Assembly: GCA_025351485.1 (NCBI GenBank)
Contig: JANXVU010000147.1
Coordinates: forward strand, 6,067 to 70,066
DNA: 64,000 bases
Reading direction: 5' to 3'
Source of the DNA: Candidatus Eiseniibacteriota bacterium
Lineage (GTDB): Bacteria > Eisenbacteria > RBG-16-71-46 > JACRLI01
In this document: positions 8,990 to 55,215 of the stretch, one piece after another
How positions within the stretch are numbered: the first letter of the stretch is position 1
Layout: the number at the start of each line of letters is the position of its first letter
Position numbers and translations under genes: made by a program
Notes under the pieces: generated by a model
Told to the model about the DNA's origin: nothing
Databases searched by the model: none
The model's input: the letters and a program-made list of their open reading frames with translations, nothing else

Positions 8990-9000
8990 CTGTTAAGTCT

Positions 9001-12685: not shown

Positions 12686-12707
12686 CCGAATTGAGCTGAC
12701 GGGCGAT

Positions 12708-21096: not shown

Positions 21097-21143
21097 GCAT
21101 GGCCCGGGGCCTTCGGTACGCCGAAGGGACGGAGGGCTAGCCG

Positions 21144-22376: not shown

Positions 22377-22700
22377 AAGGCCCCGGCCCGGCCGGCGGCC
22401 GAATGGGATTCCCGGGGCCAATCCCGGCGCCGGCCCCCCGGTGCCGGGTTCCCGGCCCGCCGGGCCCCGATTCCCAACTTCAATCATCCCAACGTTTTTC
22501 CGCTTTCCCGTGCCATGGGTAATTGAGCCGGAATCCCTCTCAAACCGCTCAAGATGCAATCCGCCCCTCCCGATACATATCTCGTGACACCCCCGCCCCC
22601 GGGCGGGCGCCAGCAGGTCGCGTTCGTTTCGCCGTCAGGCGGCCCGGGCAGCGGCCCGGTACGCCGCCACCGCGGCAATTCCACACAGGAGGAAGTTCCC

Positions 22701-23084: not shown

Positions 23085-23094
23085 GGGACCGCAG

Positions 23095-35753: not shown

Positions 35754-36764
35754 ATGAATTCCCGCTGCGTGCTGCTCCTGACCTACGGCGAACCACCCAC
35801 ACCCGAATTTTTCTCCCAGCTGCAATATTCGTGGCGGATCCTGCTGGGATTGACGCGCTCCGTGGCCCCGATTCCCATGGCGGTGCTCCCGATCATCGCG
35901 CTCAAGCGCGGCTTCGCCCGCAACAAGATGTGGTCCGATGAAAAGTACGGATCGCCGCTGGAGAAGATCCACGACGCGCAGGTGCGCGCGGTGAAGCAGG
36001 CGCTGGAAAAGGCCGACCCGCGCACCCGGTGGGATGTGCGCGCGGCCTACGAGTTCCGGGACCCGCTGCTCCAGGACGTGGTGAATGGCGCGCCCGCGGG
36101 CATTCCGGTGGACGTGGTCCCGATGTACGCGGCCTGCTCGGCATTCACGCACGATCTTTCGCGCCAGCTCCTGGCATCCGATTCGAGCCTGGCCGCTTCC
36201 GGCCGGGCCGTGCACGTGCTGCCGCCGCTGCCCGAGGAGCGCCTTGCCGACATGATGATCGCCCACGTCAAATCGGAGCTCAAGAAGCGCGGCGTCACCA
36301 CCGGCAAAGACTGGGCGCTGCTCCTCTCCGCCCACGGCACGCTTCTCCAACCCCCGCGCCCCTACGAGACCGGCAGGCTGGCCACCGAGCGGTTGTGCGA
36401 GCGCATCCGGCGGGGCCTCCAGGGTGAGTTCGGAAAGGTCTGCAACGGCTGGCTTAACCATATTTACGGCGGAGAGTGGACCAAGCCCCCGGCCGACGAG
36501 GCGCTCAAGTGCCTGGCCGGGGAAGGCTATAAGAAAGTGGTGTATTTCCCGTACGGGTTCCTGGCGGACAACGCGGAGAGCGAGCTGGAAGGACGGCAGG
36601 TGCTGCGCACCCAGCCCCAAATGGAATCCGTCCATCTGGCTTGCCTGAACGAGAGCCCGGCGCTGGCGGAACTGATCGCGTGGCAAGTGGCGGGACGGAT
36701 ACCGCTGCGGGCCGCGAGCCGCGCCGGAGCGAAGGCGCGGGCCCCCGAAGCCGTGGGCGTGTAG
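35754..36764 (+). CDS. ferrochelatase-family protein (divergent)
   Basis: CVLLLTYGEPPTPEF (compare GxLLxNLGGPxT), LLLSAHGTLL (compare LLxSxHGxP), and C-terminal VVYFPYGFLADNAESELE (compare PGFxADCLETLEE). Confidence 0.5.
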   Translation: MNSRCVLLLTYGEPPTPEFFSQLQYSWRILLGLTRSVAPIPMAVLPIIALKRGFARNKMWSDEKYGSPLEKIHDAQVRAVKQALEKADPRTRWDVRAAYEFRDPLLQDVVNGAPAGIPVDVVPMYAACSAFTHDLSRQLLASDSSLAASGRAVHVLPPLPEERLADMMIAHVKSELKKRGVTTGKDWALLLSAHGTLLQPPRPYETGRLATERLCERIRRGLQGEFGKVCNGWLNHIYGGEWTKPPADEALKCLAGEGYKKVVYFPYGFLADNAESELEGRQVLRTQPQMESVHLACLNESPALAELIAWQVAGRIPLRAASRAGAKARAPEAVGV

Positions 36765-39596: not shown

Positions 39597-40991
39597 CTAG
39601 ACCGTTCGCGAGTAAGTCGGCTTCCCCGCATCCGGCTGCTTCAGGTAGCGGTCGAACTCCATCGCGACCAGCCGCACGAACAGCCGCCCCATTTCGGTGA
39701 CCTCCACCACTCCGCCCTCGACGTTGGCAATGCCGTCCGCCACCGGGCCGCGCTTGAGCGACTCGAGCTCGGTCGCGAAGTGCCTCCGGAAGTCGATCCC
39801 GAACTTCTGCTCCACCGCCGGCACGTTCACCCTGAAGTTGCACATCAGCTGCATGATCACGTCGCGGCGCAGCGCGTCGTCGCCCACCAGCGCGTAGCCC
39901 TTTTCGGTGGCCGGGCGGCCGCCATCCACCGCCGCGTAGTAGATCGGCAGCTTCTTGGTGTTCTGCGCGAAGGCCTCGCGCACGTCGCCGATCGCCGAAA
40001 CTCCCATGCCGATCTGGTCGCTTGCCGGCATCACGGTGTATCCCATGAAGTTCCGATACAGGCTTCCGGAGGCCGAGGCGCGCGCCAACTCGTCGGTCGC
40101 GAGCGCGAAGTGGTCCATGCCCACCTGCACGTAGCCGCCCGACAGGAATCCGTCGATGGCGGTGGCGAAGAGCTCCACCTTCACCTCGCGCGCCGGCAGG
40201 TCCTCGGGCTGGATGCCCTTCTGGTTGTGCTTGATCCAGGGCACGTGCGCGTAGGAATAGCAGGCGACGCGGTCGGGACGCAGGCTCACCACCTGCTCCA
40301 CGGTCTGCGCGAACGACTCGGGGTTCTGGTAGGGCAGGCCGTAGATGAGGTCCAGGTTGATGGAGCCGAAGCCCTCCGCGCGGCAGGCGTCGAAGCACTC
40401 CTTGGTCATGTCGAAGGGCTGGATGCGGTTCACCGCCTCCTGCACCTCGGGCGTGAAGTCCTGCACCCCCATCGAGATCCGGTTCCATCCGAGCTTTCGG
40501 AGCAGCGCGATCTGGTCGCGCGTGGTGACCCGCGGGTCCACTTCGATCGCGACCTCGGCGTCGGGCGTGAACTGGAACTCCTCGCGCACCACGTGGTGCA
40601 GATGCTCGATCTGTTCGCAGGTCAGGTAGGTCGGCGTGCCGCCGCCCCAGTGGTACTGGTTCACCTGGCGGCGGTCCTTGAGGCGGGAGGCGATCAATCG
40701 CACCTCGCGCTCCAGGGACTCCAGGTAGCGGTCCGAGATCCCGGTCTTGCGGGTGATGATCACGTTGCAGCCGCAGAACCAGCAGCGCTCTTCGCAGAAC
40801 GGCAGGTGCAGGTACAGCGAGACCGGCGAGTCCTTGAGCTCGGAGGCGCGCTCCAGGTGCTCCAGGTACTGGTCGGCCCCGAAGCTCTCGGAAAACTCGA
40901 CCGCGGTGGGATAGCTGGTGTAGCGCGGTCCCGGCCGGTCGAACCGGGCCAGCCGTTCCGCGGTGACCTGGATTCTCTCGTTTCGGATCAT
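39597..40991 (-). CDS. hemN: oxygen-independent coproporphyrinogen-III oxidase (radical SAM)
   Basis: MIRNERIQVTAERLARFDRPGPRYTSYPTAVEF...SLYLHLPFCEERCWFCGCN (CxxxCxxC radical-SAM motif)...GGGTPTYL. ATG 40989-40991. Confidence 0.9.
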   Translation of the reverse strand: MIRNERIQVTAERLARFDRPGPRYTSYPTAVEFSESFGADQYLEHLERASELKDSPVSLYLHLPFCEERCWFCGCNVIITRKTGISDRYLESLEREVRLIASRLKDRRQVNQYHWGGGTPTYLTCEQIEHLHHVVREEFQFTPDAEVAIEVDPRVTTRDQIALLRKLGWNRISMGVQDFTPEVQEAVNRIQPFDMTKECFDACRAEGFGSINLDLIYGLPYQNPESFAQTVEQVVSLRPDRVACYSYAHVPWIKHNQKGIQPEDLPAREVKVELFATAIDGFLSGGYVQVGMDHFALATDELARASASGSLYRNFMGYTVMPASDQIGMGVSAIGDVREAFAQNTKKLPIYYAAVDGGRPATEKGYALVGDDALRRDVIMQLMCNFRVNVPAVEQKFGIDFRRHFATELESLKRGPVADGIANVEGGVVEVTEMGRLFVRLVAMEFDRYLKQPDAGKPTYSRTV

Positions 40992-42028
40992 GCCGTGGGC
41001 CTCCACTCGCGCACCGTGTCCACTAGGGCCTGCACGCATTCGAGCGGGGCGTTCGGCAGGATGCCGTGCCCCAGGTTAAAGATGTGTCCGGGTCTGCCGG
41101 CGTTGCTTTCCAGAACCTGCCGCGCGCGGCGGCGCACCTGGTCAGGGCCCGCGAGCAGCGAGACCGGGTCCATGTTGCCCTGGACGGCCAGGTTCGGCCC
41201 CAGAATGTCGCGCGCCGAGCCGATGTCCATCCGAAAATCCAGTCCCACCACCTGCACCGGCAACTGCGAGATGCGCTTGAGCGCCCCTGCCGTGCCGTTG
41301 GAATAGTAGATGATCGGCACGTTGTATCGCGCCATGGCCCGGGCCACCTTGTCGACCGGCCCGGCCACGTAGCGGTCGAACTCTTCGGGAGCCAGCAGCC
41401 CCGCGTGGGTGTCGAACAGCATCAGCGCGTCGGCGCCGGCCTCGGCCTGCGATCCCAGGTACTCGATGGTTCCCTGGGTGAGCGTGTCCAGCAACGCGTT
41501 GGCCGCCTCGGGCGCGGTAAACAGCAGCGACTTGATTCGCTCGAAGTTCCGCGAGCCGCCGCCTTCGACCATGTAGGTCGCCACGGTGAACGGGGCGCCC
41601 GCGAACCCGATCAGCGGCGTCTCGCCCTTCAGCAGTTCGCGCGATGCGCGCACCGCACCGGGCACGAAGGAAAGCTTTTCCGCGACCTCCCCGGTGTGCA
41701 GCTTGCTCACGTCCGCCAGCGATTCGATCCGCGACTTGAACACCGGGCCGGGATTGAATTCCACGTCCATGCCCAGCGCCTGGCAGATGAGCAGGATGTC
41801 GCTGAACAGGATCGCCGCGTCGAATCCGTAGCGGCGGATCGGCTGCACCGTCACCTCCGCGGCCAGCTCCGGCGTGCGGCACACGGTCAGGAAGTCGTGC
41901 TTCGCGCGCAGTTCCCGGTACTCGGGCAGGTAGCGGCCCGCCTGGCGCATGACCCAGATGGGAGTGCGCTCCAACGGCTGGCGGCGGCAGGCGCGGATGA
42001 AGAGCGATGTTTCGAGCGACGTGGGCAA
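40988..42028 (-). CDS. hemE: uroporphyrinogen decarboxylase
   Basis: TTG start 42026-42028 with GGGAG 6 nt upstream, giving (M)PTSLETSLFIRACRRQPLERTPIWVMRQAGRYLPEYRELR... The N-terminal block is characteristic of HemE. The stop overlaps the hemN start (ATGA). Confidence 0.9.
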   Translation of the reverse strand: MPTSLETSLFIRACRRQPLERTPIWVMRQAGRYLPEYRELRAKHDFLTVCRTPELAAEVTVQPIRRYGFDAAILFSDILLICQALGMDVEFNPGPVFKSRIESLADVSKLHTGEVAEKLSFVPGAVRASRELLKGETPLIGFAGAPFTVATYMVEGGGSRNFERIKSLLFTAPEAANALLDTLTQGTIEYLGSQAEAGADALMLFDTHAGLLAPEEFDRYVAGPVDKVARAMARYNVPIIYYSNGTAGALKRISQLPVQVVGLDFRMDIGSARDILGPNLAVQGNMDPVSLLAGPDQVRRRARQVLESNAGRPGHIFNLGHGILPNAPLECVQALVDTVREWRPTA

Positions 42029-42030
42029 GT

Positions 42031-43353
42031 CTATCTCCCGTCCCTGGCGGCGGCCAGCGACTCGGCGGCGGCGCGCAGCGTGAAATCGATGTCGGCGTCG
42101 GTGTGCGCCGAAGAAAGAAAAGCCGATTCGAACGGCGAGGGCGGCAGGTAGATCCCCCGCGCGAGCATGGCGGCATGAAAGCGCACGAACATCGCCCGGT
42201 CGGCGCGCAGGACGGACTCCATGTCGTCCACCGGACCGGGCGCGAAAAACAGGCTCCACATCGAGCCCACCTGGTTGACCGTGGCGGTGAGGCCCGCCGT
42301 GGCCACGGCCTTGCGTAGTCCTTCGGCGAGCCGGGCGGCGGACGCTTCCGCCCGCTCCGAGGCCCCGGAAGTTTCCACCTCGTGCAGCGCGGCGATCCCC
42401 GCGGCGCACGACACCGGGTTACCGGAATTGGTCCCGGCCTGGTAAACCGGGCCGGCCGGCGCGATACGCTCCATCAGGTCCGCCCGGCCGCCGTAGGCCG
42501 CGATCGGCATGCCGCCCCCGATCACCTTGCCAAGGGTCACCAGGTCCGCGCGCACGCCGTAGCGCGCCTGCGCGCCGCCGCGGGCCACCCGGAACCCGGT
42601 CATGACCTCGTCGAAGCACAGCAGCGCCCCCTCGGCGTCGCACAGCTCGCGCAGGCCCTGCAGGAATCCCGGTCGCGGCGGGAGAACACCGTAGTTCCCC
42701 ACCACCGGCTCCACGAACAGCGCCGCGATCTTCCCCGGGTGCGCCTTGAATACCGCGCGCACCGAATCCAGGTCGTTGTAGCGCGCCACCCGGGTCATGG
42801 CCGCCAGCGCCGCGGGCACGCCCGGGGAGTCCGGCAGATCCAGGGTGGCCGCGCCGCTCCCCGCCTTGACCAGGAAGGAATCCGCGTGGCCGTGATAGCA
42901 GCCGTCGAACTTAATGAGCAGGTCGCGGCCGGTGGCGGCCCGCGCCAGGCGCAGCGCGCTCATGGTGGCCTCGGTCCCGGAACTCACCAGGCGCACCCGT
43001 TCCATGTTGGGCACCAGTCTCAGGATGGCCTCCGCCAGCTCCACTTCGCCGGCGCACGGGGCCCCGAACACCATCCCGCGGCCGGCCTGCTCCTGCACCG
43101 CCCGGACCACCGTGGGCGCGCCGTGGCCCAGCAGCAGCGGTCCCCAGGCCAGCACGTAGTCCAGGTAGCGGTTCCCGTCCACGTCGAACAGGTACGGCCC
43201 CTCGGCGTGGTCCATGAACCGCGGCGTACCGCCCACCGACTTGAACGCGCGCACCGGGGAATTCACCCCGCCGGGCATGAGCGTGCAGGCCCGGCGAAAG
43301 AGTTCGGCGCTCTTCTGCACCGCGGAGGCGGCGATGTTTCCGGTGTCGGTCAT
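42031..43353 (-). CDS. hemL: glutamate-1-semialdehyde 2,1-aminomutase
   Basis: ...LMPGGVNSPVRAF...YLDYVLAWGPLLLGH...CFDEVMTGFRV...TLGKVIGGGMPIAAYGG (PLP lysine) - canonical HemL. Confidence 0.9.
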   Translation of the reverse strand: MTDTGNIAASAVQKSAELFRRACTLMPGGVNSPVRAFKSVGGTPRFMDHAEGPYLFDVDGNRYLDYVLAWGPLLLGHGAPTVVRAVQEQAGRGMVFGAPCAGEVELAEAILRLVPNMERVRLVSSGTEATMSALRLARAATGRDLLIKFDGCYHGHADSFLVKAGSGAATLDLPDSPGVPAALAAMTRVARYNDLDSVRAVFKAHPGKIAALFVEPVVGNYGVLPPRPGFLQGLRELCDAEGALLCFDEVMTGFRVARGGAQARYGVRADLVTLGKVIGGGMPIAAYGGRADLMERIAPAGPVYQAGTNSGNPVSCAAGIAALHEVETSGASERAEASAARLAEGLRKAVATAGLTATVNQVGSMWSLFFAPGPVDDMESVLRADRAMFVRFHAAMLARGIYLPPSPFESAFLSSAHTDADIDFTLRAAAESLAAARDGR

Positions 43354-43363
43354 GTCGTTCCCT

Positions 43364-44332
43364 CTAGAGCAGCTCCGCGAGCTCGCGGGCGTGGTAGGTG
43401 ATGATCATGTCGGCGCCGGCCCGGCGGATGGAGGTCAGCACCTCCAGCGCGGCTCGCTCGCCGTCCAGCCAGCCCTTTTCCGCGGCCGCCTTGATCATGG
43501 AATACTCGCCGGAAACGTTGTACGCGCACACCGGCACCCGGAAGGTGTCCTTGACCCGGCGGATGATGTCCAGGTAGGGCAGCGCGGGCTTGATCATCAC
43601 CGCGTCCGCTCCCTCGGCCAGGTCCATCTCCACCTCGCGCAGCGCCTCGTCGGTGTTCGGCGGGTCCATCTGGTAGCCGCGCCGGTCGCCGGACTTGGGA
43701 GTGGACTCGGCCGCTTCCCGGAACGGCCCGTAGAAGGCCGAGGCGTACTTGGCGGCGTAGGAAACGATCGGGGTCATTTCGAAGCCCTCGCCGTCCAGCG
43801 TCTCGCGGATCGCGCCCACGCGGCCGTCCATCATGTCGGAGGGGGCGATGATGTCGGCGCCGGCCTTGGCGTACTCGACCGCCATGCGCGAGAGCAGCTC
43901 CAGGGTGGCGTCATTGTCCACGTGGGCGTTCCTGAGCACGCCGCAGTGGCCGTGGTCGGTGTACTCGCACAGGCACACGTCGGTCCACACCACCAGGTCG
44001 GGGTGCGCCTTCTTGAGCGCCCGGACGGCGGTGGCCACCACGCCCTTGGGATCGTAGCCGGAGGAGCCCAACGCGTCCTTGGTCTCGGGGATTCCGAACA
44101 GCAGCACCGAGTTCACCCCGCGTGCCAGCGACTCGCCGGCGGCCTTCACGGTGAGGTCGACGGACTGCTGCGAATAGCCGGGCATGGATGCGATGGGCCG
44201 GTCCAGCCCCTGGCCCGGGCACACGAACAGCGGCTGGACCAGCTGGTCCGGGGAGACTCGGGTCTCGCGCACCAGGGCGCGCAGCGCGGGCGTGCGGCGA
44301 AAGCGGCGCATGCGAAGCTCGGGAAAATTCAC
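43364..44332 (-). CDS. hemB: porphobilinogen synthase (delta-aminolevulinate dehydratase)
   Basis: RMRRFRRTPALRALVRET...VLLFGIP...CLCEYTDHGHCG...SDMMDGRV...YAAKYASAFYGPFREA...VMIKPALPYLDIIR - the active-site Lys blocks. Confidence 0.9.
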   Translation of the reverse strand: MNFPELRMRRFRRTPALRALVRETRVSPDQLVQPLFVCPGQGLDRPIASMPGYSQQSVDLTVKAAGESLARGVNSVLLFGIPETKDALGSSGYDPKGVVATAVRALKKAHPDLVVWTDVCLCEYTDHGHCGVLRNAHVDNDATLELLSRMAVEYAKAGADIIAPSDMMDGRVGAIRETLDGEGFEMTPIVSYAAKYASAFYGPFREAAESTPKSGDRRGYQMDPPNTDEALREVEMDLAEGADAVMIKPALPYLDIIRRVKDTFRVPVCAYNVSGEYSMIKAAAEKGWLDGERAALEVLTSIRRAGADMIITYHARELAELL

Positions 44333-44339
44333 TTCGGGT

Positions 44340-45092
44340 TCATCCTTTCAGGATCGAGGTCAGGGCCTCGGCCACGCCCTCTCCGTCGGCGGCCGGGGCG
44401 CGCATCACCCGGGTCGCTCCGGCGCGGGTGAGGCGGATCTCGGTCGTCGTGCCCTGGGCGATGCAGGGAATTCCCATCAGCGTGCGCCACGCCGCGCTGT
44501 CCATGTTCTGCCGCAGCGAATCCACGGCCGAGGGCGACGCAAACACCGCCGCCGCCAGCAAGTGCTTGTCCATGGCGGAAAGAAGCTGCGCCACGTTCAC
44601 GTGCACCCCGATGGTGCGATAGACTTCCAACTCTTCCACTTCCCACCCGGCATCTTCCAGCGCGTCGGGCAGCGTGTCGAGCGACAGATTGCCCCTCAGG
44701 AACAGCGCCCGCCGCGGCTCGGGGTGACGGGCCAGCAGCCATTCGGCCATCTCCAGCGCTCCGGTGCCGGGCGAGATTTCCACTTCTACTCCCAGGCGCG
44801 CGAGCGGCTCGGCGGTGGCCTTTCCAACCGCCACGCACACCGGCAGCACTTCCAGGTCCGGCCCGAGGGCCGCGGCCAGGGCCGCGGAAGCCCGCGCGCT
44901 GGTGAGCGCGATCAGGTCGGGGGGAGTGTCCGAGCGCAGCCTTTCCGAAAGTTTCGAGATCTCGCGGCCGGGCTCGAACCGCAGCACTTCCAGTTCGATC
45001 TGGGCGCAGCCGGCCGACTGGACCGCGTGCCGCTCCGGGCAGTCCTTGTCGAGGACCCGCGTGAACAGGACCTTCCGGCGTCCCTCGCTCAT
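44340..45092 (-). CDS. hemD: uroporphyrinogen-III synthase
   Basis: 250 aa with a HEM4 two-lobe pattern (VLFTRVL...ALTSARA...; ...LFLRGNLS...AAVFASPSAV...). Sits between hemB and hemC. Confidence 0.8.
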   Translation of the reverse strand: MSEGRRKVLFTRVLDKDCPERHAVQSAGCAQIELEVLRFEPGREISKLSERLRSDTPPDLIALTSARASAALAAALGPDLEVLPVCVAVGKATAEPLARLGVEVEISPGTGALEMAEWLLARHPEPRRALFLRGNLSLDTLPDALEDAGWEVEELEVYRTIGVHVNVAQLLSAMDKHLLAAAVFASPSAVDSLRQNMDSAAWRTLMGIPCIAQGTTTEIRLTRAGATRVMRAPAADGEGVAEALTSILKG

Positions 45093-45105
45093 CGGTCGCG
45101 CTTGC

Positions 45106-46008
45106 TCACAGGCTCGGCAGCAATTCCGCGGCGCCCTGCTCCAGCAGCGCCGTGGCCACCTGCCGGCCCAGCGCCTCGGGGTCGCGGGCGGTGCCGGCGC
45201 CCGAGGCGCGCAGCACCGTCTTGCCGTCCAGCGAGCAGGCGCATCCGGTCAGGAGCAGCCGGCCGTCTTCGATGCGGCCCCAGCCGCCGATCGGGAGCCG
45301 GCACCCGCCGCCGAGCCGGCGCAGAAGCGCTCTCTCGGCCAGCACCGCCGCCTTGGTGTCGGCGTGGCTGATCCCCACGGCCGCGGCGCACGTCTCGGTG
45401 TCGCCCGAGCGGGCCTCCAGCCCCAGCGCGCCCTGCGAGATGGCGGGCAGCATCACCTCGGGCTCCAGGACCTGCGTGATCCGGTCCGCGAGCCCGAGCC
45501 GCTTCAGCCCGGCCACGGCCAGCACGATGGCGTCGAACTCTCCCTCGTCCATCTTCCGGATGCGCGTGGGCACGTTGCCGCGGATCTCCACGCATACCAG
45601 GTCCGGGCGCGCCGCCAGCACCTGGGAACTTCGCCGCTGCGAGGAAGTGCCGACGCGGCCGCCCGCGGGGATTCGTTCCAACGTCAGGCCGCCGCGCGAG
45701 AGCCACGCATCCCGCGGATCCTCCCGCACCGGCACGCCCGCCAGGGTCAACCCCTCGGGCAAAATGGTGGGCAGATCCTTCAAAGAATGCACCGCCAGGT
45801 CGGCCACCTCGCCGAGCAGCGCCTGCTCCAGCTCGCGCGTGAACACCCCGAGCCCGCCGATTTCTGAAAGCGGGCGCACCCGGTCCTTGTCTCCCGAGGT
45901 GCGGATCTCCAGGAGCTCCACCCCCGGAACCCCGGCATCCCGGAGCAGACCTGCAATGTGGTTGGACTGTGCCAGCGCCAGCGCGCTAGCGCGCGTCGCG
46001 ATCTTCAT
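45106..46008 (-). CDS. hemC: hydroxymethylbilane synthase (porphobilinogen deaminase)
   Basis: MKIATRASALALAQSNHIAGLL...AVHSLKDLPT...RVGTSSQRRSSQ...IRGNVPTRIRK...GGCRLPIGG (dipyrromethane cofactor Cys). Confidence 0.9.
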   Translation of the reverse strand: MKIATRASALALAQSNHIAGLLRDAGVPGVELLEIRTSGDKDRVRPLSEIGGLGVFTRELEQALLGEVADLAVHSLKDLPTILPEGLTLAGVPVREDPRDAWLSRGGLTLERIPAGGRVGTSSQRRSSQVLAARPDLVCVEIRGNVPTRIRKMDEGEFDAIVLAVAGLKRLGLADRITQVLEPEVMLPAISQGALGLEARSGDTETCAAAVGISHADTKAAVLAERALLRRLGGGCRLPIGGWGRIEDGRLLLTGCACSLDGKTVLRASGAGTARDPEALGRQVATALLEQGAAELLPSL

Positions 46009-47284
46009 CGGTCTCCCCTGGCCCGGTGGGCTCTTTCTCGAGGTCGAACAGGTGCCGCACCGCGCCCGCCAGTTCCGGGCCTCGGCGCGGATCGTCCTTG
46101 GCCTGCATCAGGCGCAGGGTCGGTTCACGAAGTATATCGTTGATGATGCTCCGCGTGAGCAACTCCAGCTTTTCGCGGTCCTCCGCGCGGAACTTGCCCG
46201 CCACCGCCTCCACCCGCGCGTGGCGCAGCGATTCCAGCCGCGAGCGCATGTCGGCCAGCGTCGGCGTGACGGCAAGGCTGCGGTACCAGTCCAGGAACTT
46301 CGCGCTCTCTTCGGCGACGATCGCCTCGGCCCGCGGCGCCTCGCGGCGGCGGCGCTCCAGGTTGTCGTCCACGATGGACTTCACGGATTCGGTGGAATAC
46401 ACGAACACGTTGGAAATCTTGTTCACCGCGGGATCCACGTCGCGGGGCATGGCCAGGTCCACGATCACCATGCTGCGGCCGCGCCGTGCGCGGATCGCCT
46501 GCCGCACCATCTCCTCGCCGATCAAAGGCGCCGGGGACGAGGTCGCGCTGAACACCAGGTCGGCTTCGGGGAGCAACCTGGGCAGGTCCTCCAGCGAATG
46601 GGCGCGACCTCCGAGGCGCTGGGCCAGGACCCCGGCGCGCTCCAGGGTGCGGTTGGCCACCGTGAAATCCTTTACGCCGGCGTCGCGCAGGTAGTCTGCG
46701 GCCACGCGGCAGGTCTCGCCGGCGCCCACGATCAGCACCCGGGTCTCCTGGAGCGCGCCCAGCACCTTGGCGGCCAGGCCCACCGAGACCGAGGCCATGG
46801 AAATGGAGCCCTCGGTGAGCGAAGTTTCGGTGCGCACCCGGCGAGAGCAACGCACCGCGCTGTCCACCATGCGGCGCAGCACCGGCCCGCTCGCGCCCAT
46901 TCGCGCGGCGAGGTCGGCGGCGTTGCGGACCTGGCCGGCGATTTCCGTCTCCCCGATCACCATCGAGTCCAGCCCCGAGGTGACGCGAAAGAAGTGGGGC
47001 ACGGTGTCGGCGGTCTTCCAGACGTAGGTGAGTCCTTCGTGCTCCAGGATGTCCACGCCCTTGAGCCATCGGAAGATCGCGGCCAGCGCTTCCACCGGCG
47101 GCTGTTCCTCCGGGCTGCGCGCGTAGAACTCCATGCGGTTGCAGGTGGCCAGGATGAGGGTTTCCTTGTGGCCTTCCTCGCGCAGCCGGCTCAGGGCCTT
47201 CTCGGTTTCTTCCGGAGTGAGCGCCACGGCTTCGCGGATCTCGGCGGGCGAAGTCGTGTGGTTCAGTCCGATGCAGTGGATCAT
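45986..47284 (-). CDS. hemA: glutamyl-tRNA reductase
   Basis: ATG 47282-47284. MIHCIGLNHTTSPAEIRE...LILATCNRMEFY (catalytic Cys)...VLIVGAGETCRVAADYL. Its 3' end overlaps the hemC start by 23 nt. The 198-codon N-terminal extension of the listed ORF is an artefact. Confidence 0.9.
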   Translation of the reverse strand: MIHCIGLNHTTSPAEIREAVALTPEETEKALSRLREEGHKETLILATCNRMEFYARSPEEQPPVEALAAIFRWLKGVDILEHEGLTYVWKTADTVPHFFRVTSGLDSMVIGETEIAGQVRNAADLAARMGASGPVLRRMVDSAVRCSRRVRTETSLTEGSISMASVSVGLAAKVLGALQETRVLIVGAGETCRVAADYLRDAGVKDFTVANRTLERAGVLAQRLGGRAHSLEDLPRLLPEADLVFSATSSPAPLIGEEMVRQAIRARRGRSMVIVDLAMPRDVDPAVNKISNVFVYSTESVKSIVDDNLERRRREAPRAEAIVAEESAKFLDWYRSLAVTPTLADMRSRLESLRHARVEAVAGKFRAEDREKLELLTRSIINDILREPTLRLMQAKDDPRRGPELAGAVRHLFDLEKEPTGPGETDEDRDAR

Positions 47285-47289
47285 GCGGC

Positions 47290-48111
47290 CTACCTGAACT
47301 GGTGGAACGACCCGGCGAGGTGTCCCGGGATCAGGGTCGAGATCAGGAGCAGGCCGAAACCCGCGAGCGACAGGTACACCGTGAGCGTCCCGCCCCGGTG
47401 CAGCCGGTAGTGCACGAACAGCGCGCTGCCCGAGACCAGCCACACCAGCACGGTCAGGATCACCTTGGGGTCGGCGTAGTAGCCCGGAAACACGTGCGAG
47501 ATCCACACGATTCCCAGGATGATGGTGATGCCCAGCAGCGTGAATCCCGCGGCGGTGGACCGGATCATGGTGCGCGAGAGTTCGTCCAACGACGGCAGCC
47601 GGTGGTAGACCAGCGAGAAGCGGCCGAGCTTGAGTTCGTGGTAGAGCAGCAGGAACAGCACGCCGTAGACCGCGGCCAGGGCCAGCGCGCAGTAGCTGGC
47701 GATGGCGGCCAGCGTGTGCATGGCAAAAAGCGGAGAGCGCAGGACCGCCGAAGGATGCGGCTCGGTTCCGAAGCCCAGCGCCCCGGGCAGCATGAGCAGG
47801 GCCACCACCGCGACCACGAACATTCCGATCATGGGCGTGCCGCGGCGGATCTCGATCCAGAAGTAGCAGATCGCCAGGCACAGCGCGACCATGCCCAGGG
47901 CCTCGCCCGCGCTGGTGATGGGAAGCATTCCCAGCTTGGTGGCCCGAAGCATCAGGGCGTTGGCGTGCAACAGGATGGCAGCCATCAGGAGCGGCTGCGC
48001 GGCGCGGCCCAGGCCCGGGGCGCGGCCCCAGAACACGGCGGCGTAGGAGGCGGCGGTCAGGGCGTACATTCCGAGCACCAGGAGCAGGATCAGGGACACG
48101 AGGGCTTCCAT
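47290..48111 (-). CDS. CcsA-family (cytochrome c assembly / HemX-like) polytopic membrane protein
   Basis: ATG 48109-48111. 8 TM segments with the CcsA-like Trp-rich region ...ICYFWIEIRRG... and conserved His-containing helices. Sits directly upstream of hemA, as in B. subtilis hemAXCDBL. Confidence 0.7.
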   Translation of the reverse strand: MEALVSLILLLVLGMYALTAASYAAVFWGRAPGLGRAAQPLLMAAILLHANALMLRATKLGMLPITSAGEALGMVALCLAICYFWIEIRRGTPMIGMFVVAVVALLMLPGALGFGTEPHPSAVLRSPLFAMHTLAAIASYCALALAAVYGVLFLLLYHELKLGRFSLVYHRLPSLDELSRTMIRSTAAGFTLLGITIILGIVWISHVFPGYYADPKVILTVLVWLVSGSALFVHYRLHRGGTLTVYLSLAGFGLLLISTLIPGHLAGSFHQFR

Positions 48112-48227
48112 GGATACGGGGTGGACTCCGCCCGGCCGGGGATCTCCCGGTCCGGTAACCCTAAGAATATAATGGTGGAAGGCGATTCTGACAAACGGGG
48201 AGTACCGGGGGGCCGGCCTTGCCGGAC

Positions 48228-49490
48228 CTAGCCCACCTTGCGGGTCGGCACGATCACGTTGGCCAGCAGCATCCCGGCGGCCAGGGCGGCCGTCATCAGC
48301 AGCATGCGGAAGGCGGTTTCCACGCCCGGCACCACCTCGTGACCCATGAGCGAAAGCAGGCTCCGAAAACCCATGCTTCCCGGCACCAATAGAATTAGCC
48401 CCGGCACGAGGGTGACCGTGGGCGGCCGCCGGAAAACGCGGCTGTAAAGATTGCTCGCCACCCCCAGAGCCAGCGAGCCCACGAACACTCCCAACCGGTG
48501 CCCCAGCAGCACTCCTCCCAGGCGCGCCCCGCCGAACCCCGCCAGGCCGGCGGCCAGCACCCACGGGATGTCCCGCGGCGCCGCGCGAAAGAGCACGCTG
48601 AACGCCAGCGGTCCCACCACGAGGCCCACCGCCGTGGTCCATGGAGGCAGCGCAGCCACCAGGGCCGGCCCGGGAACTCCAAAGACCGATGCCGCCACCG
48701 TGTTTCCGACCGCCACACCAAAGGCGATCGCCAGGAACAGCATGAACGCTCCGGCCAGGCGCGTCGTGCCCGACACCAGGTGGCGGGAAGAGAGTTCCAT
48801 CATGGCCAGCGTCAGGGTGAGGCCCGGCAGCACCACCAGCAGGCTGGCCAGGGTGACGTTGGAAGTGTCCAGTCCGTGCAGGCTACGCGCGGCCCCGGCC
48901 GAAAGAAACGCCGCCACGAAGGCCGCCGCCGGCTCGAACACCCGGCCGGTGCCGGGGCTTCGCGTGAGCAGCAGCGCCAGCAGGCCGGTCAGGAGGCCGA
49001 TCACCCCGGCCACGGCCGCTTCGCGCGCCCCCCCGCCCAGCAGCACCGCGCCCGCACAGGCCGACACCGCCGAGGCCAGCAGCGTGAGAGCCGAACGGTA
49101 GCGCCGGGGAGCCGCCACGATTTCCTGGATCCGGGCCAGTCCTTCGGCGGGATTGCCGCCGCCGTGCAGGACCTTCTGGGCCACGCCTTCCAGGTCGGCC
49201 AGTTTTTCCAGGTTCACTTCGCCGGGCTCGGCGCGCAGCAGGAACGACTTCTGTTCCGGGAGCGGCCCGAAGGCCGCAAAGATGGCCGTGGGAGTGGAAA
49301 AGAACTGTCCCACCACCCCCAGCCGGAGGGCCGCGTGCTCCAGGACTTCTTCAAGGCGCTGGGAAGAGTAACCGTAGCGATGGAGGGCGCGGGCGAGCTG
49401 CAGGATGAAGTGGATAGGCTCGCGGTCGGGCGTGGCGGGAGATTCGGAGGCGGCGGATACGGCGGAACCTGGAGCAGGCCTTTCGGCCAT
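48228..49490 (-). CDS. ThrE-family putative threonine/serine exporter (DUF1212 + DUF3815)
   Basis: Cytoplasmic N-domain IHFILQLARALHRYGYSSQRLEEVLEHAALRLG..., then 10 Gly/Ala-rich TM helices typical of ThrE. Confidence 0.75.
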   Translation of the reverse strand: MAERPAPGSAVSAASESPATPDREPIHFILQLARALHRYGYSSQRLEEVLEHAALRLGVVGQFFSTPTAIFAAFGPLPEQKSFLLRAEPGEVNLEKLADLEGVAQKVLHGGGNPAEGLARIQEIVAAPRRYRSALTLLASAVSACAGAVLLGGGAREAAVAGVIGLLTGLLALLLTRSPGTGRVFEPAAAFVAAFLSAGAARSLHGLDTSNVTLASLLVVLPGLTLTLAMMELSSRHLVSGTTRLAGAFMLFLAIAFGVAVGNTVAASVFGVPGPALVAALPPWTTAVGLVVGPLAFSVLFRAAPRDIPWVLAAGLAGFGGARLGGVLLGHRLGVFVGSLALGVASNLYSRVFRRPPTVTLVPGLILLVPGSMGFRSLLSLMGHEVVPGVETAFRMLLMTAALAAGMLLANVIVPTRKVG

Positions 49491-49759
49491 CAGTCCACGT
49501 CCACCCGGTCCACCACACCGACCACCATGGTGCGCACCGGGCCCTGCTTGATGCCCAGGATCTGGGAGGCGGCGTTGCCCTCGTCCACCACCAGGACCTT
49601 TTCGCCTTCGCCGGCGGACACGGTGTCGAGCGCGATCACCGGCGGGCCCTTGGGCTGATCCTTCTCATCCACGAGCTGCACGTACAGCAGCTTGTGGCAG
49701 CAGAGGGGATCGATCTTGACAGTGGCGACCACTTCGCCCACCACGATGCCGAGCTTCAT
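49490..49759 (-). CDS. bacterial microcompartment vertex protein (BMC-P; EutN/CcmL/PduN family)
   Basis: 89 aa MKLGIVVGEVVATVKIDPLCCHKLLYVQLVDEKDQ...VIALDTVSAGEGEKVLVVDEGNAASQILGIKQGPVRTMVVGVVDRVDVD aligns along its full length with the EutN/PduN consensus (M.lg.VvG.VvaT.K...L.G.KLL.V...AlDtVgAG.GE.VLV..G.aA.....PvdamvVGvvDrVd). Its ATG directly follows the dNK stop. Confidence 0.8.
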   Translation of the reverse strand: MKLGIVVGEVVATVKIDPLCCHKLLYVQLVDEKDQPKGPPVIALDTVSAGEGEKVLVVDEGNAASQILGIKQGPVRTMVVGVVDRVDVD

Positions 49760-50669: not shown

Positions 50670-51128
50670 CTAGTCGCGATCGCGATCCCGGTCCCGGTCC
50701 TCGTCGCCATGGCGTCCGTGGTCGTGATGTTCGCGCTTCATCTTCCAAAGGTGGCGCGAATCCCGGTCCTCGTACATGCCATGGTGATAACGGCGATAGT
50801 GCCGGTTGGCGCCGAGCAACTGGCGAGGCACGCGATCGATTCCCACGGACATCCAGGGCCCGCGGTGCGCGCGCGACCAGAACCAGTTGCGGCCGCGGCA
50901 GGAGTACCAGCCGCCTTCCCCGCGATAGACTTCGGCTTCCTGGTAGTCGGCGGCGTACCCGGATCGGGTTCCCGGCTCCAGGACGCACCCCGCTTGATCT
51001 CCCCCGCTCCGGACATCCACATGGATATACGTGGCGGCGGAAGCTACCGTGACGCTGAATCCGACGGTCACCAGGACCGCCAGGGCGGCCGCGGCCCCCA
51101 GCCGTAGTTGCTTCGATGTCAAGTTCAT
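50670..51128 (-). CDS. secreted protein with a His/Asp/Arg-rich C-terminal tail
   Basis: GGGAGGAG RBS, ATG 51126-51128. Signal peptide MNLTSKQLRLGAAAALAVLVTVGFSVTVASA, then ...WYSCRGRNWFWSRAHRGPW..., ending RYHHGMYEDRDSRHLWKMKREHHDHGRHGDEDRDRDRDRD. Confidence 0.5.
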   Translation of the reverse strand: MNLTSKQLRLGAAAALAVLVTVGFSVTVASAATYIHVDVRSGGDQAGCVLEPGTRSGYAADYQEAEVYRGEGGWYSCRGRNWFWSRAHRGPWMSVGIDRVPRQLLGANRHYRRYHHGMYEDRDSRHLWKMKREHHDHGRHGDEDRDRDRDRD

Positions 51129-51289
51129 GCGCTCCTCCCTTTCCAGGGCCCCGAGCTGGCCTGTCCGGATGTCTGGAATCCTCAATTGCGTCCCAAACTC
51201 GAGCTCGAATCCATAGATCCTGCATAAGGCAACGGGCGTGCCGGACCTGGGGCTACTGTAGAAAACAGACTAAGACGCTATCAAATTAA

Positions 51290-51482: not shown

Positions 51483-52151
51483 ATGCCCAGCCCAACCGTG
51501 GAAAACTACCTGAAAGCGTTGTTCCAGCTCGCCGTTCCGGAGCGGGGGGTCAGCACGCGCGAGCTGGCCGGCAGGTTGCTGGTCAAGGACGCCTCGGTCA
51601 CCCATATGCTCAAGCGGCTGTCCGGGACCGGGATGGTGAGCTACGAGCCGTACCGGGGGGCGACCCTTACACCGGAGGGACGGCAGGCGGCCACGGCGGT
51701 CCTGCGGCGCCACCGAATATTGGAATTGTTCCTTCACCGGATGTGCCGGCTGTCGCTGGACAAGGTGCACGCCGAGGCGGAGCGGCTGGAGCACGCCGCC
51801 TCCGAGGACTTCGTGGACGCCCTGGACCGGCTGATGGACTTTCCCACCCTGGATCCGCATGGAGATCCCATCCCCGACCGCGAAGGCCGGCTGCGCGGGA
51901 TCGACTCCCGCCCGCTGACCGATATCCCACCGGGCGCACGGGTGGTGCTGGTGCGCGTGGAAGATGCCCGCCCGGAGGCCCTCACTTACCTGGTCAGCGA
52001 GGGACTGGTCCCGGGCCGCAAAGTCACGGTGGCGCGCCGGCTGGACTTCGATGGATCGGTGGAGCTCCAGTTGGGCCGCCGCCGCCTCATGCTGGCACGC
52101 GAGCTGGCCGAGGGCATCCATGTGACCCCCGACGAGGGGAGCGCGGAATGA
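51483..52151 (+). CDS. mntR: DtxR/MntR-family metal-dependent transcriptional repressor with a C-terminal FeoA/SH3-like domain
   Basis: MPSPTVENYLKALFQLAVPERGVSTRELAGRLLVKDASVTHMLKRL (wHTH); the metal-site helices ...RRHRILELFL...HAEAERLEHAASEDF...; C-terminal ...GARVVLVRVED... (FeoA-like). Confidence 0.85.
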   Translation: MPSPTVENYLKALFQLAVPERGVSTRELAGRLLVKDASVTHMLKRLSGTGMVSYEPYRGATLTPEGRQAATAVLRRHRILELFLHRMCRLSLDKVHAEAERLEHAASEDFVDALDRLMDFPTLDPHGDPIPDREGRLRGIDSRPLTDIPPGARVVLVRVEDARPEALTYLVSEGLVPGRKVTVARRLDFDGSVELQLGRRRLMLARELAEGIHVTPDEGSAE

Positions 52152-53566
52152 GCTCTCCCAACCCGAAGCAGCCCGAGAGGTCCGCCCCGCCCGGGCGTCC
52201 TTCCACGCCGTCCCTTTCGGAGGTTTTCCGAAGCGTCCCGGTCAGCGGACGCGGCTGGCTCCGACGGCTGTTCGCCTTTGCGGGGCCGGGCTATCTGGTG
52301 AGCGTGGGCTACATGGACCCGGGCAACTGGGGCACCGACATCGCCGGCGGCGCGCAGTTCGGCTATGCGCTGCTGTGGGTGATCCTGCTTTCCAATCTCA
52401 TGGCGATGCTGCTGCAGACCCTGTGCGTGCGACTGGGCCTCGCGACCGGAAGAGACCTGGCGCAGGCGTGCCGGGACTACTACAAGAGGCCGGTGGCCGT
52501 GGCGCTGTGGCTGCTGTGCGAGATCGCCATCGTGGCCTGCGACCTGGCCGAGGTGGTGGGTTCGGCCGTGGCGCTCAACCTGCTGTTCCATATCCCGCTG
52601 CTGTGGGGCGTGCTCATCACCGGGCTGGACGTGCTGCTGCTGCTGGGCGCCATGAGTTTCGGATTCCGAAAGATCGAGGCCGTGGTGGTCACGCTGGTGT
52701 TCACGGTGGGGATCTGCTTCGCCATGCAGACCTTCCTGGCCCACCCGGCGTGGCCGCAGGTGGCCGCGGGCTTCGTGCCGAGCATTCCGGGGCCGCAGGC
52801 CTTCGTGATCGCGCTCGGGATCCTGGGAGCGACGGTCATGCCGCACAATCTGTACCTGCATTCGGCGCTGGTGCAGACCCGCGCGAGCCGGCAGACGCCC
52901 GCGGGTATCACCGAAGCCATCAAGTTCAACACCATCGACACCATCGTGGCGCTGGGCGCGGCGTTCTTCGTGAACGCGGCCATCCTGGTGGTGGCATCCG
53001 CGGTGTTCCACACTCGCGGATACACCCACGTCTCGGAGCTGCAGGAGGCGCACAAACTGCTCACCCCGCTGCTGGGCGCCCCGGTGGCGGCCACGGCGTT
53101 CGCGGTGGCGCTGCTGGCCTCGGGGCAGTCGTCCACCATCACCGGAACGCTGGCCGGGCAGATCGTGATGGAAGGCTTTCTCAACATCCGGATCCGGCCG
53201 TGGCTGCGGAGGATCATCACCCGGAGCCTGGCGATCATTCCGGCGATGGTGCTGTTCTCCTTCACCGGCGGCAGGGACACGGTGGCCCTGCTGGTCATGT
53301 CCCAGGTGGTGCTGTCGCTGCAACTCTCCTTCGCGATCTTTCCGCTGATGATGTTCACCAGCGACCGGCGGCTCATGGGCGAGTTCGTGAACCCGCCGGC
53401 GCTCAAGATCGCGGGCTATGCGACGTGCCTGCTGATCGCCTCGCTGAATGCCTACTACTTGTACACCAGCATCGGGCCGCTGTGGCTGGGCGTGGTGGCC
53501 GCGGCGATGATTGGTTTTGCGGTCTGGGTCCGGTATTTCTACCGGGAGGGCCCGGCGGCCGCCTGA
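52148..53566 (+). CDS. mntH: NRAMP-family divalent metal (Mn2+/Fe2+) transporter
   Basis: ATG overlaps the mntR stop (ATGA). ...FAFAGPGYLVSVGYMDPGNWGTDIAGGAQFGYALLWVILLSNLMAMLLQ... (DPGN motif) and MPHNLYLHSAL (consensus transport motif). Confidence 0.9.
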   Translation: MSSPNPKQPERSAPPGRPSTPSLSEVFRSVPVSGRGWLRRLFAFAGPGYLVSVGYMDPGNWGTDIAGGAQFGYALLWVILLSNLMAMLLQTLCVRLGLATGRDLAQACRDYYKRPVAVALWLLCEIAIVACDLAEVVGSAVALNLLFHIPLLWGVLITGLDVLLLLGAMSFGFRKIEAVVVTLVFTVGICFAMQTFLAHPAWPQVAAGFVPSIPGPQAFVIALGILGATVMPHNLYLHSALVQTRASRQTPAGITEAIKFNTIDTIVALGAAFFVNAAILVVASAVFHTRGYTHVSELQEAHKLLTPLLGAPVAATAFAVALLASGQSSTITGTLAGQIVMEGFLNIRIRPWLRRIITRSLAIIPAMVLFSFTGGRDTVALLVMSQVVLSLQLSFAIFPLMMFTSDRRLMGEFVNPPALKIAGYATCLLIASLNAYYLYTSIGPLWLGVVAAAMIGFAVWVRYFYREGPAAA

Positions 53567-53668
53567 GGCGAATGGTCAGCGCCTGGTGCGCCCGCTCCCT
53601 GCCCTTTTCAAGCCTTGCCCCCCCATCCCCTGTTCAGCCCCCCTTCAAAGTGGTAAATTTCCCATCCC

Positions 53669-54310
53669 ATGGAACGCAAGGATCTGGAAGGTCTGGTTCG
53701 GCAGTTGGTGACGGACGTGGTGGCCCGCGTGGATGCGGCCGCCAAGGCTCCGGTGGCCCCGCCGTGCCATGAAACCGAGCCGCTTTCGCCGAAAAAGTCC
53801 GCGGCTCCGGCCGGGGCCTCGCCCGCCGCCGCGGGACCCGCGCCGCTCTCCAAGGAGCTTCGCGTGGTGATCGGCTCCGACCATGGCGGCTTTGCGCTGA
53901 AAGAGGAGCTGGTCTCGCACCTGCATGCGCTGGGCTACGCGGTGATCGACGTGGGCACGCACGGCACCGAGGCGGTGGACTATCCTGACTTTGCCAAGGC
54001 GGTGGCCCAGCGGGTCGCGCGCGGCGAATGCGACCGTGGGATCGTCATCGACGGGGCCGGGATCGGCTCCGGGATGGCGTGCAACAAGGTGGCCGGTGTT
54101 CGCGCCGCGGTGTGTCACGACCTGAAGAGCGTGCTGAACTCGCGCGACCACAACGACGCCAACGTGCTTTCCCTGGGCTCCGGCGTGGTGAGCCCCGAAC
54201 TGGCCCGCGAAATGGTGGCCACCTGGCTCAAGACCCCCTTTGGCGCCGGCCGCCACTCCCGCCGGATCGCCAAGATCAACGAACTCGACCGCGACAGGAC
54301 CCGCGCATGA
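53669..54310 (+). CDS. rpiB: ribose-5-phosphate isomerase B (RpiB/LacAB family) with a 62-aa N-terminal extension
   Basis: Core [19 protein letters not shown]...[30 protein letters not shown]...[10 protein letters not shown] is RpiB. The extension [21 protein letters not shown] + [40 protein letters not shown] is a predicted amphipathic helix followed by an Ala/Pro-rich linker. Confidence 0.85.
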
Positions 54311-55215
54311 CCGACCCCAAGCTGATCGAAGCCATCGTCCAGGAAGTGCTGCGCCGCCTGCCGTCCTCCGCGGGAGCCAGCACCTGCGGCGACTGCACCT
54401 CGTGCGGGCACTGCGCGGTGAAGAAGCCCGAGATGATCAAGAGCCTCGTGGACCAGGGCGCCTGCCGCATCGGCTGCTGCCCCGGCGTGGGATCGGGCAT
54501 GCCGCCCACGCTGGCCTGCCTGATCGACCACACCCTGCTCAAGCCCGACGCCCCGCGCTCCGACGTGGAAAAGCTGTGCACGGAAGCGCTCGAGTACAAC
54601 TTTGCCTCGGTGTGCATCAACCCCTCGTGGGTCTCCCTGTGCCGCGACAAGCTGCGCGGCAGCGAGGTCAAAGTTTGCACCGTGATTGGTTTCCCGCTGG
54701 GGGCCAACACCACCCAGACCAAGGCGTTCGAAACCCGGCGGGCCATCCTGGACGGGGCCACCGAGGTGGATATGGTGATCAACGTCGGGCGGCTCAAGAG
54801 CGGCGACAACGACTACGTGGAAAAGGACATTCGCGAAGTGGTGGAGCAGGCCCGCCCCAACGTGCTGACCAAGGTGATCCTCGAGACCGCCCTGCTCAGC
54901 AAGGAAGAGATCGTGCGCGCTTCGCTGCTCGCGCGTTCCGCCGGGGCCAACTTCGTGAAAACCTCCACCGGGTTCGCCTCCGGCGGGGCCACCGCCGAGG
55001 ACGTGCGCCTGATGCGCCAGGCCGTGGGCGACCGCATGGGCGTGAAAGCTTCCGGCGGCATCCGAGACCGCAAAGTGGCCGAGGAAATGGTGGAGGCCGG
55101 CGCAACCCGCATCGGCGCCTCCGCCAGCGTGAAGATCGTGACCGAGGCGGCGGCCGCGGCCGGCGCGCCCAAGGCGGTCACCGAGAGCGCGGCCTCGGCA
55201 AAGTCGCAGTACTAG
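54307..55215 (+). CDS. deoC: deoxyribose-phosphate aldolase (DERA) with a 78-aa N-terminal extension
   Basis: ATG overlaps the rpiB stop (ATGA). Core [14 protein letters not shown]...CINPSWV...[12 protein letters not shown]...[10 protein letters not shown]...[10 protein letters not shown] (Schiff-base Lys)...VKASGGIRD is DeoC. The extension [18 protein letters not shown] + [50 protein letters not shown] is a predicted amphipathic helix followed by a Cys-rich segment. Confidence 0.85.

Follow-up and report, generated by a model that had tools for sequence, protein, structure and literature searches.

An RpiB-DERA operon of an Eisenbacteria genome as the probable satellite cargo locus of a split SPU3-like microcompartment

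Among bacterial microcompartments (BMCs), the sugar-phosphate-utilising (SPU) types are defined by a pfam01791 enzyme, a pfam02502 enzyme and a triplet of BMC-P shell genes; encapsulation peptides (EPs) have been described on part of the SPU enzymes, and split loci have been noted (Sutter 2021, PMC8217296). According to Dwyer, Sutter and Kerfeld 2024 (PMC11585597), every SPU deoxyribose-5-phosphate aldolase (DERA) has an N-terminal extension of about 70 residues, made up of an amphipathic helix and two strands, SPU RpiB-like proteins (RPIs) begin with a typical EP joined to a linker of about 75 residues, and every SPU RPI has Asp in place of the catalytic Cys. These authors purified the DERA and RPI of SPU6 (Chloroflexi), obtained soluble DERA by deleting its extension, and found that DERA is active on deoxyribose 5-phosphate, that the two proteins form a roughly 1:1 complex, and that RPI is nearly inactive. 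A further type, MIC7, is catalogued as a 'metabolosome with incomplete core' from six loci of Eisenbacteria and Latescibacteria (Sutter 2021, Supplementary Data 2); its aldehyde dehydrogenase (AldDH) is closest to that of SPU3, no signature enzyme is listed for it, and MIC2-7 are grouped with the BMC types that have no obvious aldehyde-generating signature enzyme. Here we analyse an RPI-DERA operon in a 64-kb stretch (the window, by which we mean the whole stretch) of contig JANXVU010000147.1 from a Candidatus Eiseniibacteriota bacterium, and conclude that it is very probably the satellite cargo locus of a split SPU3-like (MIC7) microcompartment of an Eisenbacteria genome. A first, sequence-only reading of this DNA had proposed that both enzymes carry EPs and had called the SPU class experimentally uncharacterised; the former proposal is well supported, and for SPU pairs in general already published, while the latter statement was outdated by the work of Dwyer 2024.

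The two genes resemble the described SPU pair in that they are adjacent, that the DERA has an extension of about 70 residues beginning with an amphipathic helix, that the RPI has an EP and a long disordered linker, that its catalytic Cys is replaced by Asp, and that their presumed partner is an EP-bearing AldDH and their presumed shell has a BMC-P triplet. They differ from it in lying outside a BMC-H/AldDH locus, the satellite that holds them having a single BMC-P gene and a gene for a deoxynucleoside kinase (dNK). Translational coupling, as first proposed, is evident from the ATGA at 54307-54310, in which the RPI stop overlaps the DERA start, and the N-terminal peptides quoted in the sequence-only reading are correct for both proteins. 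Alignments to solved DERA structures are restricted to DERA residues 68-282 (69-282 for 8qps) and those to solved RpiB structures begin only at RPI residue 55-65, leaving residues 1-54 uncovered; each protein has about 65 extra N-terminal residues relative to the solved structures. Within the aldolase domain, D155, K218 and K247 are invariant (alignment A1) and the C-terminal Tyr is also kept. On our own reading, these three residues would correspond to D102, K167 and K201 of the E. coli enzyme. In RPI, aligned to 3ph3/3he8, the sequence IVIDGAGIG stands in place of IVICGTGLG, such that the catalytic Cys (Cys66 in E. coli numbering) has become Asp and the neighbouring Thr has become Ala. Asp occupies the catalytic position in 77 of 97 scorable RPI relatives, drawn from the top 150 cluster representatives, and 50 of these 77 have an extension of at least 40 residues. 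The combination of PF01791 and PF02502 domains, the DERA extension, the RPI EP and the Cys-to-Asp change bears out the identification of the genes as an SPU cargo pair.

Both extensions are translated and conserved, as judged from their G+C content at third codon positions (GC3), from a bias towards synonymous change and from their conservation in orthologues. GC3 is 0.94 in the DERA extension vs 0.90 in the gene body; for RPI it is 0.78 in the extension, vs 0.88 in the body and 0.59 in the upstream intergenic region. Codon changes relative to L001, which is 96% identical, number five synonymous and no non-synonymous in the RPI helix, and ten and four, respectively, in the DERA extension, a pattern of purifying selection. 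The RPI start ATG and the helix ME(R/D)xDLExxVRxxVxxVVxR(V/L) are common to five Eisenbacteria-like orthologues (the window, L001, L002, L093 and L098), and the DERA extension of about 70 residues is present in 110 of the 120 best DERA homologues; absence from orthologues, which had been named at the outset as grounds for giving up the EP proposal, is the opposite of what we found. In L002, automated NCBI annotation starts DERA at an internal Met (P0008, 236 aa), and the extension lies in frame upstream of that start, behind a GTG with GGAGG before it.

The anatomy of an EP, a terminal amphipathic helix of about 15-20 residues followed by a poorly conserved flexible linker, is present in full in RPI, whose linker contains 11 Ala and 9 Pro in 39 residues, has an insertion in L001 and is divergent in sequence in L002, L093 and L098. 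DERA has the helix and a short disordered stretch; its residues 27-57 are conserved and not linker-like. The low-complexity linkers initially ascribed to both enzymes are therefore real for RPI and not for DERA, in which a four-Cys motif and a helix-strand unit fill these residues. An AlphaFold2 model of full-length DERA places a helix at residues 4-17 and disorder at residues 19-32, and a model of the extension alone gives the helix a pLDDT of 82-90 with disorder at residues 22-26. The hydrophobic moments are 0.58 for the RPI helix and 0.64 for the DERA helix, compared with 0.47-0.61 for the peptides of PduD, PduP and EutC. The pattern h-xx-hh-xx-hh-xx-h, in which h is hydrophobic and x polar, has five matches only in the six-frame translation of the window, three of which fall in these N-terminal helices (two overlapping in RPI and one in DERA); a Pfam scan of the two isolated extensions at E-values up to 10 gave no match. 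The classical EPs of PduD, PduP and EutC, reportedly the subject of Fan et al. in 2010, are similar in having a terminal helix of about 15-18 residues with the h-xx-hh-xx-hh pattern, a linker behind it and comparable moments. They differ in belonging to other enzymes, and the DERA helix, unlike theirs, is followed by a conserved structured element and not by a flexible linker alone.

The pair is accompanied by a shell gene. BMC-P is encoded 3.9 kb upstream of RPI-DERA, 5-6 open reading frames (ORFs) away, and is detected by tblastn with EutN (E 1e-11) as well as with CcmL. This distance is within the 12-ORF rule of the BMC catalogue, and with a BMC-P gene close to its enzymes the locus has the composition of a satellite locus as defined there (Sutter 2021); a main locus for an SPU pair would contain at least one BMC-H, one BMC-P and AldDH, and the window has BMC-P alone. 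We call the satellite distal from its main locus on the ground that BMC-H and AldDH are missing from the 64 kb. The sequence-only reading had reported no AldDH, PduL or shell gene nearby, which holds for the first two across the 64 kb and overlooked BMC-P; of the two arrangements it offered, a satellite locus or a minimal system, we retain the former. The BMC-P gene appears to be co-transcribed with a nucleoside-salvage enzyme: dNK adjoins it without a spacer, an adjacency retained in L001, L002 (a Candidatus Eisenbacteria metagenome-assembled genome, GCA_016235265.1) and L009, and a ThrE-family exporter gene 3' of BMC-P overlaps the BMC-P stop by one base. The whole order, dNK-BMC-P followed at a distance by DtxR-Nramp-RPI-DERA, is repeated in L001 and L002. 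L009 has the dNK-BMC-P pair and DtxR-Nramp, and RPI-DERA is absent at the syntenic position. An unusually long transketolase (789-793 aa) adjoins the satellite BMC-P gene in L002 (1019-3400) and L009 (7776-10145), outside the window; over its first 150 residues, the L002 enzyme showed no EP-like N-terminus. Dwyer 2024 described transketolase as needed to connect ribose 5-phosphate and glyceraldehyde 3-phosphate inside the SPU BMC.

Complete shell loci are found elsewhere in the phylum. P0167, an Eiseniibacteriota BMC-P with 57% identity, is encoded in a compact locus in the order BMC-H, BMC-H, BMC-P, AldDH, BMC-T (182 aa), BMC-P, BMC-P, the AldDH of which starts MTVDERRIRSIVADVLERLE. A search with AldDH took one genome per species and kept the best 80 loci, of which about 63, from Eisenbacteria or mislabelled relatives, all have this order, and about 60 of the Eisenbacteria main loci have the BMC-P triplet P1-P2-P3. 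No RPI or DERA gene lies within 10 kb in any of the approximately 63 Eisenbacteria main loci. These loci match MIC7 in having two BMC-H genes, three BMC-P genes, a BMC-T that is PduT-like but has no pore Cys, and an EP at the N-terminus of an AldDH closest to that of SPU3, and one of them, L031, is the catalogued RBG_16_71_46 genome assigned to MIC7. In contrast to the catalogued type, for which no signature enzyme is given, the window offers a candidate in DERA and RPI, encoded elsewhere; both sets of genes would serve one shared organelle. Within the literature library searched, no paper was found that pairs MIC7 with microcompartments. One divergent Eisenbacteria main locus (L084, 4927-7935; AldDH 55% identical) consists of H, P1, AldDH, T and P2, and has no third BMC-P though its contig continues; this lineage might keep the third pentamer elsewhere.

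The DERA helix itself points to these main loci. The N-terminal consensus of AldDH across 63 species is MSLDPRRIESIVAEVLERLE, and in a hand alignment the DERA helix of the window shares 9 of its 14 core residues with this consensus. When a profile of the first 22 AldDH residues from the 63 main loci was searched, with filters off, against the 923 six-frame segments of the window, it matched only DERA residues 3-18 (13.0 bits, E 0.0033), the next best score being 3.9 bits. The RPI helix was not matched by this profile, though the hydrophobic pattern is common to both.

The distant AldDH matches extend the comparison to other phyla (Calditrichota, Phycisphaerae, Planctomycetota, Acidobacteria and Neomarinimicrobiota), where the same shell/AldDH order has RPI and DERA directly upstream, as a single ORF of about 480 residues, the SPU3-type chimera. 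Such loci (L074, L076, L079, L080 and L086-L088) share with the Eisenbacteria main loci the order H, P, AldDH, T, P, P and contain the closest AldDH relatives outside the phylum, at 55-62% identity; their fused proteins keep the four-Cys and helix-strand part of the DERA extension as an inter-domain segment. In contrast, RPI and DERA of the window are separate, translationally coupled genes with their own N-terminal helices, unlinked from the shell cluster. Separation of the cargo module from the shell locus in Eisenbacteria would be the simplest history to account for these arrangements. There is a parallel in the HO-type BMCs, some genomes of which have a distal pfam01791 gene bearing an EP-like extension (main text of Sutter 2021). 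As here, a DERA-family enzyme with an EP-like N-terminus is found away from the main locus, and satellite loci pair BMC-P with an enzyme; the HO-type genomes differ in belonging to other phyla with another shell set, and neither an RPI partner nor dNK has been described in them.

The satellite BMC-P is more likely a fourth paralogue than a relocated third pentamer (P3) from the main locus. The proteins encoded beside dNK are 71-96% identical to one another, whereas their identity to main-locus P3 is about 53%, the P3 proteins being about 70% identical among themselves. We considered whether the satellite gene is a relocated P3, and regard this as unlikely given the identity of about 53% and the presence of P3 in almost every Eisenbacteria main locus whose contig reaches it.

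Based on these comparisons and on the published model of SPU metabolism, we propose the following scheme. DERA would cleave deoxyribose 5-phosphate within the shell into glyceraldehyde 3-phosphate and acetaldehyde, and a co-encapsulated CoA-acylating AldDH would convert the acetaldehyde to acetyl-CoA. RPI, having neither the catalytic Cys nor the Thr, would most likely act as a DERA-binding packaging partner and not as a ribose-5-phosphate isomerase. Both proteins would be recruited through their N-terminal amphipathic EPs. In the Eisenbacteria lineage the RPI-DERA genes would have been split from those for the shell and AldDH and would now stand in a satellite with an extra BMC-P and dNK, with the main locus (H-H-P-AldDH-T-P-P, MIC7) presumably elsewhere in this genome. 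The presence of that locus in this genome, physical encapsulation and the substrate are the parts of the scheme that we infer.

Some DERA neighbourhoods bear on the origin of the substrate. In L003, a relative of lower G+C content (51%), positions 8334-16113 encode a PGM/PMM-type phosphomutase, BMC-P, an extension-bearing DERA and a pyrimidine-nucleoside phosphorylase, then two BMC-H; there is no RPI beside DERA, the BMC-H genes follow 4.5 kb further on, and no AldDH is found within 10 kb. L003 is another split SPU-like arrangement. L004 has a phosphopentomutase-like gene, cytidine deaminase, RPI, DERA and nucleoside phosphorylase. The published idea of a deoxynucleoside origin of the substrate agrees with the gene context of the L003 and L004 DERAs, and dNK beside BMC-P fits this theme only loosely.

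The DERA extension holds a further element behind its targeting helix. Its Cys-rich segment contains three to five Cys in all 110 extension-bearing homologues and exactly four in 90, usually spaced C-x(2-8)-C-x2-C-x2-C, with His for Cys in some variants; the form CxxCxxC-x(3-5)-P, which is like a ferredoxin motif minus its last Cys, occurs in 72 of 120 DERA homologues. Searched for locally across all fetched loci, the motif was confined to DERA or RPI-DERA proteins, and the four-Cys and helix-strand segment is retained in the fused proteins. In its second half the extension seems to repeat the closing helix-strand unit of the barrel, with the pattern xxMxxLVxxGAxRIG, as if by internal duplication. 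A hidden Markov model of extension residues 24-62 alone matches the C-terminal unit in all 116 DERA cores examined, with a median of 12.9 bits and a minimum of 9.3; the similarity is significant, as none of 2,320 shuffled cores scored above 9.0 bits. The segment has a pLDDT of about 80 in the extension-only model, and a Foldseek search of the modelled extension against the PDB gave no match (E above 9). In its main text, Dwyer 2024 makes no mention of metal, Fe-S or cysteine in regard to DERA. The SPU DERA extension may be more than a targeting tag, and a metal or Fe-S site, to which the four Cys and the duplicated unit together could contribute, is a reasonable hypothesis that we hold only tentatively; such a site could conceivably make DERA assembly, RPI binding or activity responsive to redox conditions or metal inside the organelle. 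We regard the element as a concrete lead within the extension and speculate that it might have to do with full-length SPU DERA being insoluble in E. coli.

Several observations weigh against a satellite cargo locus. Satellite and main locus were not found in one genome: the assembly prefixes of the satellites (JAYSNK for the DERA of the window, JACRLI for L002, DATKKS for L009 and JAYUHD for P0006) are absent among the 80 main loci, and a scan of metagenome contigs with DERA returned five loci, none linked to a main locus. BMC-H, BMC-T, AldDH and PduL are absent from the window by a Pfam scan of about 45 ORFs and by tblastn with shell proteins; the same scan found no PduS, PTAC, TPI or BMC-domain protein, and tblastn with PduA, EutM and CcmK2 found no BMC-H. 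Shuffled sequences equal the observed hydrophobic moments in 4-16% of cases, on which account amphipathicity by itself is weak evidence and not statistically distinctive. The dNK reaction yields deoxynucleoside monophosphates and not deoxyribose 5-phosphate, which makes its link to the pathway thematic only. Encapsulation of the Eisenbacteria proteins is a prediction.

It could be argued that RPI and DERA are cytosolic enzymes of a deo-type deoxynucleoside catabolism, with extensions that serve oligomerisation, the DERA-RPI complex or regulation through a four-Cys metal or redox site. Some DERAs with the same extension are indeed encoded in deo-like operons or by solitary genes that have no shell gene in the surrounding 10 kb (L004/L005, L006 and L094), the DERA extension has conserved elements besides the targeting helix, and BMC-H and AldDH genes are missing from the window. 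However, BMC-P lies six ORFs away in a conserved arrangement, the DERA helix is the sole match in the window to the targeting helix of AldDH from the shell loci, the fused RPI-DERA gene is embedded in shell loci of other phyla, and in L003 BMC-P directly precedes DERA with two BMC-H genes after it; we therefore consider the cytosolic explanation improbable. Less probable still, in our estimation, is a relic, in which the shell locus has been lost and RPI, DERA and the lone BMC-P are cytosolic leftovers. The failure to find a main locus for this exact genome and the L009 arrangement, in which dNK-BMC-P stands without RPI-DERA at the syntenic position, would suit such decay, but BMC-P is full length and 71-96% conserved over at least three lineages, change in the extension helices is biased to synonymous sites, and the main locus is found in about 63 species of the phylum.

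That the extensions are artefacts of start-codon choice is very improbable. The true starts would then be GTG 53864 or GTG 53867 for RPI and ATG 54499 (M65) for DERA; these are the in-frame alternatives actually present, the sequence-only reading having given an ATG at 53855, where there is none, and an ATG at 54502, three bases from the real one. The L002 DERA is indeed annotated from the equivalent internal Met, and no strong Shine-Dalgarno sequence was seen before ATG 53669. Yet both extensions combine conserved amino acids with coding-type GC3 and synonymous-biased substitutions, no more than four codons of open RPI frame precede ATG 53669 in the window and in L001, an ATG stands there in all five orthologues, and GGAGG precedes the GTG start of the L002 extension; automated start calls, moreover, commonly miss the DERA and RPI extensions (Dwyer 2024). 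We also rejected a minimal system built of BMC-P and the two enzymes. BMC-P pentamers only cap vertices, and a pentamer alone cannot tile a shell; in addition, a full shell-plus-AldDH locus exists elsewhere in the phylum. On balance, a satellite cargo locus of a split SPU3-like microcompartment remains our preferred reading of the operon.

The features of the locus are collected in Table 1.

Table 1. Features of the RPI-DERA operon and its satellite BMC-P neighbourhood (window coordinates)
Feature	Position	Strand	Evidence or remark
RpiB-like protein (RPI), SPU type, 213 aa	53669-54310	+	Pfam PF02502 (LacAB_rpiB) aa 66-203, end to end, E 1.1e-53
Predicted RPI encapsulation-peptide helix, aa 1-24	53669-53740	+	Five orthologues, codon changes, hydrophobic moment 0.58
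RPI Pro/Ala-rich flexible linker, aa 25-65	53741-53863	+	Length and sequence differ between orthologues
Deoxyribose-5-phosphate aldolase (DERA), 302 aa, with 67-aa N-terminal extension	54307-55215	+	Pfam PF01791 (DeoC) aa 70-271, E 2.2e-21
Predicted DERA encapsulation-peptide helix, aa 1-18	54307-54360	+	AlphaFold2 helix aa 4-17; match to AldDH N-terminus profile
Conserved four-Cys motif, DERA aa 27-36	54385-54414	+	C27 and C36 invariant (33-sequence alignment A3); no Pfam match
Helix-strand unit in DERA extension, aa 41-57	54427-54477	+	Resembles DERA C-terminal unit aa 256-272 (55072-55122)
Extended -10-like element TGgTAAATT	53651-53659	+	10 nt 5' of RPI ATG; promoter role by inference only
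BMC-P (EutN/CcmL pentamer, shell vertex protein), 89 aa, satellite paralogue	49490-49759	-	Pfam PF03319 aa 1-84 of 83-position profile, E 4.7e-23
Deoxynucleoside kinase (dNK), about 225 aa	49760-50437	-	Pfam PF01712, E 5.6e-45; abuts BMC-P gene upstream, no spacer
Secreted protein, 171 aa, C-terminal His/Asp-rich tail ending (DR)n	50670-51185	-	No Pfam match
DtxR/MntR-type repressor	51483-52151	+	
Nramp transporter	52148-53566	+	

Regulation of the operon can be addressed only in outline. A TGnTA(A/C)... element similar to the one in Table 1 is found 10-18 nt before the RPI ATG in the window, L001, L002, L093 and L098, where no strong Shine-Dalgarno sequence is seen, and could be an extended -10 box that gives a leaderless or very short-leader mRNA; a scan for consensus promoters and terminators called nothing adjoining the RPI-DERA operon, this element included. 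Rfam at gathering thresholds gave no match in the window. Three genes, for the His/Asp-rich secreted protein, the repressor and the transporter, separate the BMC-P operon from RPI-DERA. The trio is syntenic in L001, L002 and L009 and probably serves manganese or iron uptake, with no relation to the BMC. The remainder of the window, which has a G+C content of 67%, includes a haem-biosynthesis cluster at 39597-48642 (- strand; HemN-like radical SAM protein, HemL, HemB, HemD, HemC, HemA and a cytochrome c assembly protein) with a ferrochelatase gene nearby at 35754-36764 (+ strand). A type IV pilus/type II secretion cluster lies at 19390-29069 (+ strand; ATPase, platform protein, pseudopilin with an N-methylation motif, PilO-like protein and secretin) and has a homologue of the TMEM260-like O-mannosyltransferases embedded in it; there are also regulators and a TonB-dependent receptor with a PorV-like protein.

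The EPs on RpiB and DERA rediscover what is the published core of the SPU types, and the modest news here is the separation of the cargo pair from its shell genes. We consider it likelier that the operon supplies the missing signature enzyme of MIC7 than that the four Cys of its DERA form a metal or Fe-S site. MIC7, a type of hitherto unknown function, would thereby be linked to deoxyribose-phosphate catabolism. If signature enzymes can be unlinked from shell loci in this way, surveys based on locus content would under-call function. Eisenbacteria are common in soils and groundwater, and an organelle that processes DNA detritus in these bacteria would be of ecological interest.

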